Source: a virus
Lineage: Duplodnaviria; Caudoviricetes
Length of the DNA: 63,953 nt
IMG/VR virus record: IMGVR_UViG_3300030329_001933
Location: 1-63,953 of that record
Strand: one strand, 5' to 3'
The notes below the pieces were generated by a model, which searched no databases, had not been told where the DNA came from, and worked only from the letters and a program-made list of their open reading frames with translations. Every line of letters begins with the position of its first letter. The stretch's first letter is position 1. Below, in pieces: positions 30,185 to 30,871 of the stretch. Made by a program: the position numbers and the translations under genes.

Positions 30185-30871
30185 TTAGTTGATTTGTTTC
30201 CTCTGCTCTGCTTTTATGTCGACTTGCAACGACCATCGGTAGCATTAAAGGAAAAACGTAAGGTTGGCTCAAGCACCACCATATTAAGTTACTGCGAGTA
30301 ACCCTTACATTGTCCCATCAAATCAAAAGGATTGTGTGTTGTCATTCGTCACGCATTAACACACAAATGCGTGTTGTCTATCTTGCTTCAGAGTATCTGT
30401 CACTTACTCTCATACCTATCAACGTACTGCTACATTACTCAGTACATATCATCGGTATCCCCTCTGATAGACTTCCCATATTAATCGGTACGGATTTCTT
30501 ACATCCCCTATGGTGCTTTACCTAACTTGATGACAGCCTATTGGTCTGTCCAAGCCCACTTGGTTATCGGCAGTGGTTTCCGTCAAGCTATTCGATGCTT
30601 ACAAACGCTGATTGAATTATTGCTCTGATACACTTAGGTAGGCAATGCTACTGCTATGTATCGTTACTAAGACTTACGACCTTCAATCAAGCTAAAGGTC
30701 TATTATACTTGGCTATCTCAACACTCTCGAAAGAGACTTGATAGTCAGATGCTATTCTAAGGATTATATGTAAGCCTTACTGCAATGCCTAAGCACGTTG
30801 CTTACTCCTACGCTGAACGCTGTATCTGAATAAGTATGTTAAAGAACGAACAACGATACTGAATCATTGTT
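30185..30871 (-). ncRNA. Candidate large structured non-coding RNA (~690 nt)
   Basis: No credible ORF; more than a dozen helices with G-U wobbles on the minus strand; pseudoknots; begins right after a promoter. Confidence 0.7.
30837..30871 (-). promoter_or_regulatory. 5' hairpin plus boxA-like antitermination element
   Basis: AACAAUGAU-UCAGU-AUCGUUGUU then CGUUCUUUAACA (rrn boxA is UGCUCUUUAACA). Confidence 0.55.

Follow-up and report, generated by a model that had tools for sequence, protein, structure and literature searches.

The locus and its predicted transcript

The window considered here comprises a complete virus record (IMGVR_UViG_3300030329_001933; 63,953 bases) that carries direct terminal repeats, as seen in self-comparison. 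On its minus strand, between a promoter-like site and the first of a long series of small open reading frames (ORFs), lies a stretch without genes that almost certainly specifies a real structured RNA. Its body defines a new family of large phage RNA, joined at the 3' end to a variant of a known self-cleaving ribozyme, the twister, and one of its segments is complementary to the message of a resolvase-like gene far downstream on the same strand. A preliminary description, made from the bare sequence, had proposed a new large pseudoknotted non-coding RNA at the head of the operon, and the conservation and covariation of the body, which resembles no Rfam family, bear this out. Taken together, the observations lead us to favour, with some reserve, a reading in which an operon-leader RNA is released by the twister and acts in trans, antisense to the resolvase-like message.

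Pfam domains in the window include the crassvirus muzzle-protein domain (crAss_MUZ, at 50-2395), an SU10-type capsid protein (SU10_MCP), a DnaB helicase and a protein with a type-9-secretion sorting domain (Por_Secre_tail); with crAss_MUZ, SU10_MCP and Por_Secre_tail together, the record fits a podophage related to crAss, with a genome of 64 kb and a host among the marine Bacteroidota. Minus-strand genes extend from 34896 down to 16538, and no credible minus-strand gene was found between the ORF at 31864-32265 and the small ORF at 30007-30174. Downstream of 30174 some 45 small ORFs precede Erf, exonuclease, replication-initiator, DnaB and resolvase-like genes, a series of about 13.6 kb that may be read as an early-to-middle operon and that shows no obvious internal signals. 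Among the operon's larger ORFs, Pfam and PHROGs identified DNA enzymes only and no candidate gene for a protein partner of the RNA, and a search of the window for tRNA and tmRNA genes returned none.

Transcription would begin near 30871, just after the promoter-like site at 30908-30877, in agreement with the preliminary description; the site has 10 of 12 sigma-70 consensus matches, and its TTG-type and TAnnTTTG-type elements are what we take to be the Bacteroidota promoter consensus. A box of the -7 type recurs 26-39 nucleotides (nt) upstream of the conserved 5' motif in 23 of 33 sequences; in the remaining 10 the pattern gave no such box or the upstream sequence is missing. In one group of relatives, which includes L010, L011 and L022, a tandem duplication of about 13-30 nt in the promoter region repeats the conserved upstream element.

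The absence of a credible ORF holds across 31 relatives, in which the longest sense-strand ORF has a median length of 30 amino acids and shifts in place, and 294 of the 370 pairwise indels in the RNA region are not multiples of three. Read as minus-strand RNA, the family contains 313 G.U cells against 93 A.C cells, which identifies the minus strand as the RNA strand, the one that the G-U wobbles of the single sequence had appeared to favour. Folding of the single sequence gave z scores of -2.69 (minus) and -2.80 (plus) with 20 shuffles per strand, values so nearly equal that they settle neither structure nor strand. RNA libraries from three studies contain contigs over parts of 30314-30839, including one that is 99% identical to the window over 164 nt; since such contigs carry no information on ends or levels and DNA carry-over may be present, they are a weak hint of transcription. 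No RNA-library contig fell on the early ORFs or the twister, and, these being contigs only, such gaps give no verdict on transcription. One contig of a viral-fraction library crosses the promoter and is probably DNA.

Table 1. Features of the RNA locus and its predicted target (bp, base pairs; P, T1 and T2 as in the twister class; "new" marks elements beyond the preliminary description)
Feature	Position	Strand	Details
Promoter-like site	30877..30908	minus	TTG-type upstream element and TAnnTTTG-type -7 box (30884-30877); predicted start near 30871
Large structured non-coding RNA	30247..30871	minus	~625 nt (as after twister cleavage); 150-pair model; no conserved ORF
5'-terminal hairpin	30849..30871	minus	13/14 distinct variants fold at least 5 bp; several different stem sequences
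Closing helix, 5' strand	30844..30849	minus	Partner 30318-30324; 97.9% paired
Domain D-I	30745..30829	minus	Irregular rod of five stacked helices; tip hairpin with 4-nt loop
Three hairpin modules	30627..30744	minus	84-90% paired; 2, 4 and 2 double-change pairs
Module 1	30744-30713	minus	Contains UUCG-loop hairpin; from per-variant folds
Module 2	30700-30678	minus	Conserved 7-nt loop
Module 3	30662-30627	minus	Inner hairpin 30651-30638
Hairpins and enclosing helix	30525..30607	minus	Bulged hairpin 30607-30581 (new); hairpin 30576-30556; helix 30555-30551/30529-30525 around hairpin 30550-30532
Hairpin P5 (new)	30492..30506	minus	95.8% paired over three pairs; four stem versions
Multi-helix junction	30376..30472	minus	Outer helix 30472-30466/30382-30376; hairpins 30445-30424 and 30410-30390
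Hairpin with pseudoknot	30333..30373	minus	Loop pairs with 30340-30333 (H-type)
Antisense stretch	30311..30331	minus	Complementary to message of ORF 16985-17467; overlaps 3' strand of closing helix
Branched insert	30258..30308	minus	Replaces simple pre-twister hairpin of most relatives
P3-less type-P1 twister ribozyme	30200..30251	minus	Predicted cut 30247/30246
Twister helices		minus	P1 30251-30248/30203-30200; P2 30244-30241/30212-30209; P4 30233-30230/30221-30218
Twister pseudoknots		minus	T2 30240-30239/30223-30222; T1 30228-30226/30206-30204
Spacer and first early ORF	30007..30199	minus	A-rich 25-nt spacer; ORF of 55 amino acids, start 30174
Target site	17055..17075	minus	In ORF 16985-17467, codons about 131-138 of 160

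A family of large RNAs with exchangeable domains

The family comprises 31 distinct full-length relatives and two short forms, found in marine viral and metagenome contigs. A neighbouring 133-amino-acid protein led to 21 viral loci, in seven of which nhmmer located the RNA region; the other 14 show no RNA. Six RNA-less loci with long flanks have no twister either, and in the two that were inspected the gene order differs; near the homologous region of one RNA-less relative stands a tRNA gene (L004:3648-3721, minus strand). Pattern scans with the 5' and 3' motifs added further viral and metagenome loci, giving 39 at which the 5' motif and the twister lie 488-738 nt apart (28 distinct sequences), and a profile search contributed three more full-length sequences; L020 and L035 represent a short form, some 390-440 nt in length. 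The twister is present in each relative for which enough sequence is available. Four metagenome loci (L039, L041, L042 and L043) were chance matches of the 5' pattern in coding DNA and were removed before every count. Elsewhere the family was not encountered: blastn of the region gave no match among 50,697 phage records, tblastn of one structural protein returned nothing but a weak match to a Pelagibacter phage, and the twister pattern had no match in prokaryote genomes representing one each of 185,579 species. A 19-nt internal motif matched two prokaryote sequences with no similarity beyond the motif, and both were set aside as chance.

Nor does the body resemble a known RNA. Its approximately 600 nt match none of 4,227 Rfam families, and on 29800-32000 a search at E values up to 10 returned, apart from the twister, three chance-level matches; the covariance models of GOLLD, ROOL, OLE, HEARO, raiA, group I and II introns, RNase P, tmRNA and 6S gave no match. 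The Rfam comparison that the preliminary description had named as its check on novelty thus leaves the body without a match and brings out the variant twister at the 3' end alone.

On a MAFFT alignment of the 28 sequences, RNAalifold proposed 59 pairs, and compensatory changes occur in 24 of these. A fuller model of 150 pairs, with about 25 helices plus pseudoknots, was built from lists of variants between conserved anchors and, tested on that same alignment, showed 87.2% of cells paired against 79.4 +/- 0.3% after shuffling, 67 pairs changing on both sides against 45.3 +/- 3.1, and a covariation score of 0.224 against 0.114, none of 500 shuffles being as high on any of the three measures. Sliding the 3' partners by one to three columns lowered pairing to 32-39% and double-change pairs to 16-22. 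MAFFT misaligns the 5' hairpin, helix 30804-30800/30776-30772 and the module 30744-30713, and the low values obtained there (65%, 31%, 47% and 30%) are partly alignment faults; realignment with a covariance model raised helix 30804-30800/30776-30772 to 71% paired, and the others were judged by folding each variant.

Individual domains repeat this pattern (Table 1). In the covariance-model alignment of 24 distinct sequences, D-I is 93.2% paired against 80.6% shuffled, its covariation score is 0.337 against 0.117 (0 of 500 shuffles), and nine of its 26 pairs change on both sides. The elements of 30525..30607 are 91-100% paired, with 1, 3, 5, 2 and 5 double-change pairs, and one relative, L061, swaps the entire helix 30555-30551/30529-30525. 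The junction at 30376..30472, which contains a new helix 30458-30454/30416-30412, has helices paired in 91.7%, 97.4%, 94.2% and 97.2% of cells with 3, 4, 4 and 2 double-change pairs, and the hairpin 30373-30366/30357-30350 is 94.8% paired with two. The element before the twister folds to a hairpin or a branched structure abutting the ribozyme in 19 of 19 variants. A closing helix, 30849-30844/30324-30318, was absent from the preliminary description; it has three invariant pairs, two with one-sided changes and none changed on both sides, and is plausible rather than proven. Many unpaired stretches of the body are invariant.

Twelve of the 18 helices originally proposed are supported by family variation. 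They include the 5' hairpin, the UUCG-loop hairpin and helices 30700-30693/30685-30678, 30576-30572/30560-30556 and 30550-30546/30536-30532; the outer helix 30472-30466/30382-30376 with its two inner hairpins; the hairpin 30373-30366/30357-30350; the pseudoknot between the loop of this hairpin and 30340-30333, which is 97.5% paired and has one pair that is AU in 15 sequences and GC in 10; helix 30308-30303/30263-30258; and the former terminal hairpin, which proves to be P4 of the twister. Five others found no such support, namely 30826-30821/30632-30627, 30804-30799/30795-30790, 30791-30786/30644-30639, the 10-bp helix 30779-30770/30677-30668 and 30590-30583/30530-30523. The remaining one, the long-range 30518-30511/30278-30271, has its 3' strand in an insert present in few relatives and shows no covariation. 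Counted jointly with this helix and 30308-30303/30263-30258, the five failing helices are 72.3% paired against 71.4% shuffled, with a covariation score of 0.083 against 0.078, equalled or exceeded in 74 of 500 shuffles. About a third of the original helices, two that closed junctions among them, thus fail the covariation test, and strands of the failed helices have nearer covarying partners (30804-30800/30776-30772, 30633-30627/30662-30656 and 30529-30525/30555-30551).

The body occurs in two alternative types, each with its own helix swaps, inside one conserved frame: type A in most members, including the window, and type B in L022, L024, L052, L058, L020 and L035. The promoter, the 5' hairpin, the conserved 5' and 3' motifs, the hairpin or branched insert and the twister are common to all. 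Domain D-I is missing from the short forms, and the type-B long forms, in which the 5' module is present twice, look, by eye, like a D-I block placed ahead of a complete short form. L035 and L058 have a further insert of about 130 nt in common.

A variant twister between the RNA and the first gene

In a permissive Rfam scan of 29800-32000, positions 30200-30251 matched the type-P1 twister family RF03160 over the full model (1-68) with 39.5 bits and an E value of 1.3e-6, and three relatives scored 41.8-44.5 bits. The preliminary statement that the locus bears no signature of a known ribozyme core therefore does not hold for its last 52 nt. The P1-P2-P4 order and the two pseudoknots of the family are present, whereas P3 is absent, with 16 model positions deleted and five nucleotides in their place, and the score lies below the gathering cut-off; for these two reasons the element is filed as a variant of the twister-P1 class. 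P3 is an optional stem in twisters. At the gathering threshold Rfam gave no match in the region, and a scan of the whole window at E values up to 0.05 returned nothing, twister included, so that comparable cassettes may lie hidden in other viral genomes from a default scan.

P1, P2, P4, T1 and T2 are 100% paired in all 28 sequences. Double changes, which divide the family into 21 and seven sequences, affect one pair of P1, one of P2, two of P4 and one of T1; the middle pair of T1 is AU in the 21 and GC in the seven, and T2 is invariant within the family. Relative to the Rfam consensus, the three T1 pairs and the two T2 pairs are replaced by other matching pairs, with two T1 pairs and one T2 pair changed on both sides; these were read from the alignment, with the pseudoknots placed in the RF03160 consensus as, presumably, in the published structure. 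The nucleotides of the cleavage-site loop, the P4 loop and the P4-P2 linker match RF03160 and are invariant in the 28 sequences. On this conservation of fold the element is very probably a functional twister, and by the family's rule the cut would presumably fall at 30247/30246.

An ATG-initiated ORF of 52-121 amino acids begins 23-48 nt past the twister, after an A-rich spacer, in all 32 loci with enough flanking sequence, and this first ORF differs among relatives while the unit of RNA and twister stays. The fixed position of the twister just ahead of the first early ORF suggests release of the RNA by self-cleavage, and the retention of a ribozyme between RNA and message implies that separating the two matters. 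Release as a separate molecule, by a cut at the predicted site, is accordingly judged likely. The invariant 5' motif at 30846-30841 can also pair with 30203-30198, on the 3' strand of P1, in 28 of 28 sequences and with no variation; such a helix could be an alternative fold that blocks cleavage.

Complementarity to the resolvase-like message

A search of the window against itself revealed a 21-nt exact match (E 7e-5) in which the plus strand at 17055-17075 equals the RNA-sense sequence of 30331-30311, which makes the RNA a perfect complement, over these 21 nt, of the message that ORF 16985-17467 specifies on the minus strand. This ORF has a DUF1064 domain, a PHROG annotated 'Holliday junction resolvase' and a weak match to phage endonuclease I, and a homologous ORF is present in six further RNA-bearing records. 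In seven of seven genomes the same stretch of the RNA pairs with the same codons, on a target 10.0-13.4 kb downstream on the same strand, with duplexes that measure, by eye, 21, 20, 19, 17, 17, 17 and 15 bp including G.U. As judged by eye, four columns change in step in RNA and target, three at third codon positions (Ser, Lys and Tyr) and one at a first position (Val/Ile). The ends of the duplex shift among lineages, and the ORF flanks differ at many sites. In four of the five whole records examined (G000, G002, G003 and G005), no other same-strand complementarity of the RNA is as long; in the fifth, G001, the exact core is only 13 nt and is tied with other 13-mers because a G.U pair splits the run. 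Within the RNA, 30311-30331 has a mean unpaired probability of 0.54 against 0.42 for the whole, a moderate rise only. RNAduplex over tiles of the operon did not single out the target, since spurious extensions dominate the duplexes of long sequences.

A second complementarity, of 14 nt between 30686-30699 and 21813-21826, was rejected as not conserved, being present only in the window and its closest relative, G011; it joins a conserved hairpin-loop region of the RNA to the minus-strand ORF 21701-21970. In G005 an in-frame TGA interrupts the resolvase-like ORF (L084, G005:40996-41469), and in G003 the ORF is spread over two overlapping frames (L086/L087, G003:8147-8601); sequencing errors, a frameshift or recoding could account for both.

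A proposed released antisense RNA and competing interpretations

The conserved complementarity points to a trans-acting antisense role that the preliminary description did not contain. In the mechanism that we favour, the early operon would open not with a gene but with an RNA of about 625 nt and some 25 helices, a pseudoknot among them, drawn from a family with swappable modules. The twister would most likely cut at its predicted site during transcription. Of the two products, the RNA would have both of its ends folded into hairpins and would carry a cyclic phosphate at the 3' terminus, features that would suit a stable molecule, and the operon message would begin with a 5'-hydroxyl group and the folded twister. 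Once free, the RNA would act in trans. In at least one of its actions, the 30311-30331 stretch would probably pair with a site late in the resolvase-like ORF, which belongs to the same operon and lies 13 kb downstream, and this pairing would restrain the nuclease or adjust its level in some other way. Viewed by itself, such antisense control is close to an even bet, though slightly short of one.

Several points weigh against this interpretation. The twister scores 39.5 bits against a gathering cut-off of 67.2 and is without P3; no double change occurs in the closing helix, in T2 or in helix 30829-30824/30750-30745; the start, cleavage and abundance of the RNA are inferred, with expression data limited to contigs; and other relatives within the same phage group have no RNA. 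As to the target, shuffled RNAs give a site of at least 15 nt in 3-7.5% of trials, the seven genomes fall into few lineages so that the in-step changes may amount to just two or three events, and gene conversion between the two copies may also have produced the matching. The antisense stretch overlaps the proposed closing helix. An ornate fold of about 600 nt far exceeds what an antisense seed needs, and the pairing may be a side function or incidental; moreover, RNA and target would arise from one promoter in a 1:1 ratio, which makes simple repression hard to time.

This excess of structure is the strength of a second interpretation, in which the RNA is a stand-alone machine, made first on infection and freed by the twister, that serves as a scaffold or decoy, as a multimer of the ROOL/GOLLD kind or as a new large ribozyme, with the complementarity incidental or secondary. 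The size, some 25 covarying helices, the pseudoknot and the invariant unpaired stretches surpass antisense needs, two central domains are exchangeable within one conserved frame, and both ends are protected by hairpins; yet there is no similarity to Rfam families at E values up to 10, no gene for a partner protein stands out in the operon, and the in-step changes with the target are left unexplained, and we consider it unlikely. It is enticing, if doubtful, to speculate that the family forms a new class of large functional RNA, a self-excising early effector in which a conserved frame (promoter, 5' hairpin, closing helix, 3' hairpin and twister) would express and release interchangeable A or B bodies that do more than antisense pairing. 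Such a body might, for example, bring a nuclease to the resolvase message with which it is paired, tie up a host factor or form an RNA-only complex, and a crAss-related phage would then start infection with an RNA tool, not a protein.

The twister bears differently on the proposal that the RNA works in cis, as a leader for message stability, translation control or put-like antitermination that the ribozyme merely trims. A cis-acting leader such as HK022 put needs a tether to its transcript and polymerase, which a conserved self-cleaving ribozyme would cut; cleavage there speaks against a put-like antiterminator that stays tethered and favours an RNA acting alone. Although the position from promoter to first ORF is kept in 32 of 32 loci, and so long an operon (about 13.6 kb), in which no internal signal is obvious, could gain from antitermination, the first ORF varies among relatives while the RNA is kept, and cis action appears quite improbable. 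Gating of the ribozyme itself, with the large RNA sensing a signal and setting early-gene expression in the manner of glmS, is conceivable, as the pairing of 30846-30841 with 30203-30198 is available in all 28 sequences, invariant, and could block cleavage. This alternative helix shows no covariation, however, no riboswitch family was matched, and a ligand pocket would not tolerate the exchange of A and B bodies, all of which makes allosteric control very improbable. Finally, the locus adjoins a further conserved non-coding region of about 550 nt, and the 21-nt repeat is inverted in the DNA, as might be expected of an origin, packaging site or inverted repeat with RNA structure as a by-product. 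We disfavour such a DNA-level element as extremely improbable, for compensatory changes keep the pairs, the excess of G.U over A.C cells is meaningful only in minus-strand RNA, and a ribozyme fold is conserved. The released RNA with an antisense function therefore remains the interpretation that we prefer.

Neighbouring features of the record

Between the RNA promoter and a divergent HNH endonuclease ORF (31493-31861, plus strand; PF01844, 25.3 bits) lie about 550 nt of further non-coding DNA (30940-31490), conserved at the DNA level in many relatives, some of them RNA-less, as detected by nhmmer, and containing a few short inverted repeats; it may represent an origin, the end of the genome or a further RNA. 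The HNH ORF is preceded by a 54-amino-acid ORF in another frame (31326-31490, plus strand), and the two could represent a free-standing homing endonuclease or a frameshifted gene. On the plus strand, ORF 55636-63951 runs off the record end and ORF 2-2395, open at its start, holds the C-terminal part of the crassvirus muzzle-protein profile; they are maybe one giant gene spanning the terminal repeat. A second giant ORF, of 3,757 amino acids, lies at 5036-16309.

Comparison with known systems

Large covariation-supported RNAs of unknown function are rare, and this one offers two experimental handles, a predicted cleavage site that defines its 3' end and a predicted target. The phages concerned are seawater relatives of crAss, widespread and little studied, in which the RNA would mark the very first step of gene expression. 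We know of no earlier case of a twister with a clear job in a phage; parting a large non-coding RNA from an operon message would be the first. The roles of bacterial and phage twisters are still called elusive in PMC13725137, and the literature, searched as full text, gave no description of this RNA or of its combination of large leader, twister and antisense site, while the supplements of PMC10085705 and PMC13725137 may list phage twisters. With RF03160 the element shares the order of its stems, both pseudoknots, the cleavage-site loop and the conserved loop and linker nucleotides; it differs in the lack of P3, in its T1 and T2 pairs, in its sub-threshold score and in its fusion to the 3' end of an RNA of 0.4-0.75 kb at the start of a phage operon.

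GOLLD, ROOL and OLE likewise extend over several hundred nucleotides, have covarying helices and pseudoknots, are partly phage-borne and are of unknown function, and such large ornate RNAs form RNA-only multimers by cryo-electron microscopy, according to excerpts of PMC12286853. The RNA described here matches none of them in sequence or structure, and differs from them as an operon leader with a predicted self-cleaving 3' end and a conserved antisense site. The prohead (packaging) RNA of phi29 is also structured and transcribed from an early promoter at a genome end, a likeness by description only, for it has 174 nt, no ribozyme and a known role in the packaging motor. HK022 put is a small two-hairpin RNA tethered to the elongating polymerase, whereas the present RNA has about 625 nt and is followed by a predicted self-cleaving ribozyme, and no put model was among the Rfam matches.

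Ribozymes in the 5' untranslated regions of RNA viruses, in the excerpted account of PMC13725137, cleave themselves just upstream of an ORF and leave a message with a 5'-hydroxyl end. As far as such excerpts go, they and glmS resemble the twister described here in placing a ribozyme just before an ORF and yielding a 5'-hydroxyl message; they belong to eukaryotic RNA viruses or to a metabolite-sensing bacterial leader, and neither frees a large conserved RNA. The C4 antisense RNA of phages P1 and P7 is cut from an operon transcript, its processing being carried out by host enzymes. In these phages c4, icd and ant form one operon, with the C4 binding site downstream, as excerpts of PMC8198154 have it. 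To that extent both RNAs are encoded upstream in the operon of their own target, and the feature that recalls C4, a conserved and co-varying complementarity to an own-operon target, is found in seven of seven genomes, from few independent lineages. C4 has about 77 nt and an adjacent target, whereas the RNA of these crAss-related phages has about 625 nt, appears to release itself and finds its predicted target 10-13 kb away, in a coding region.

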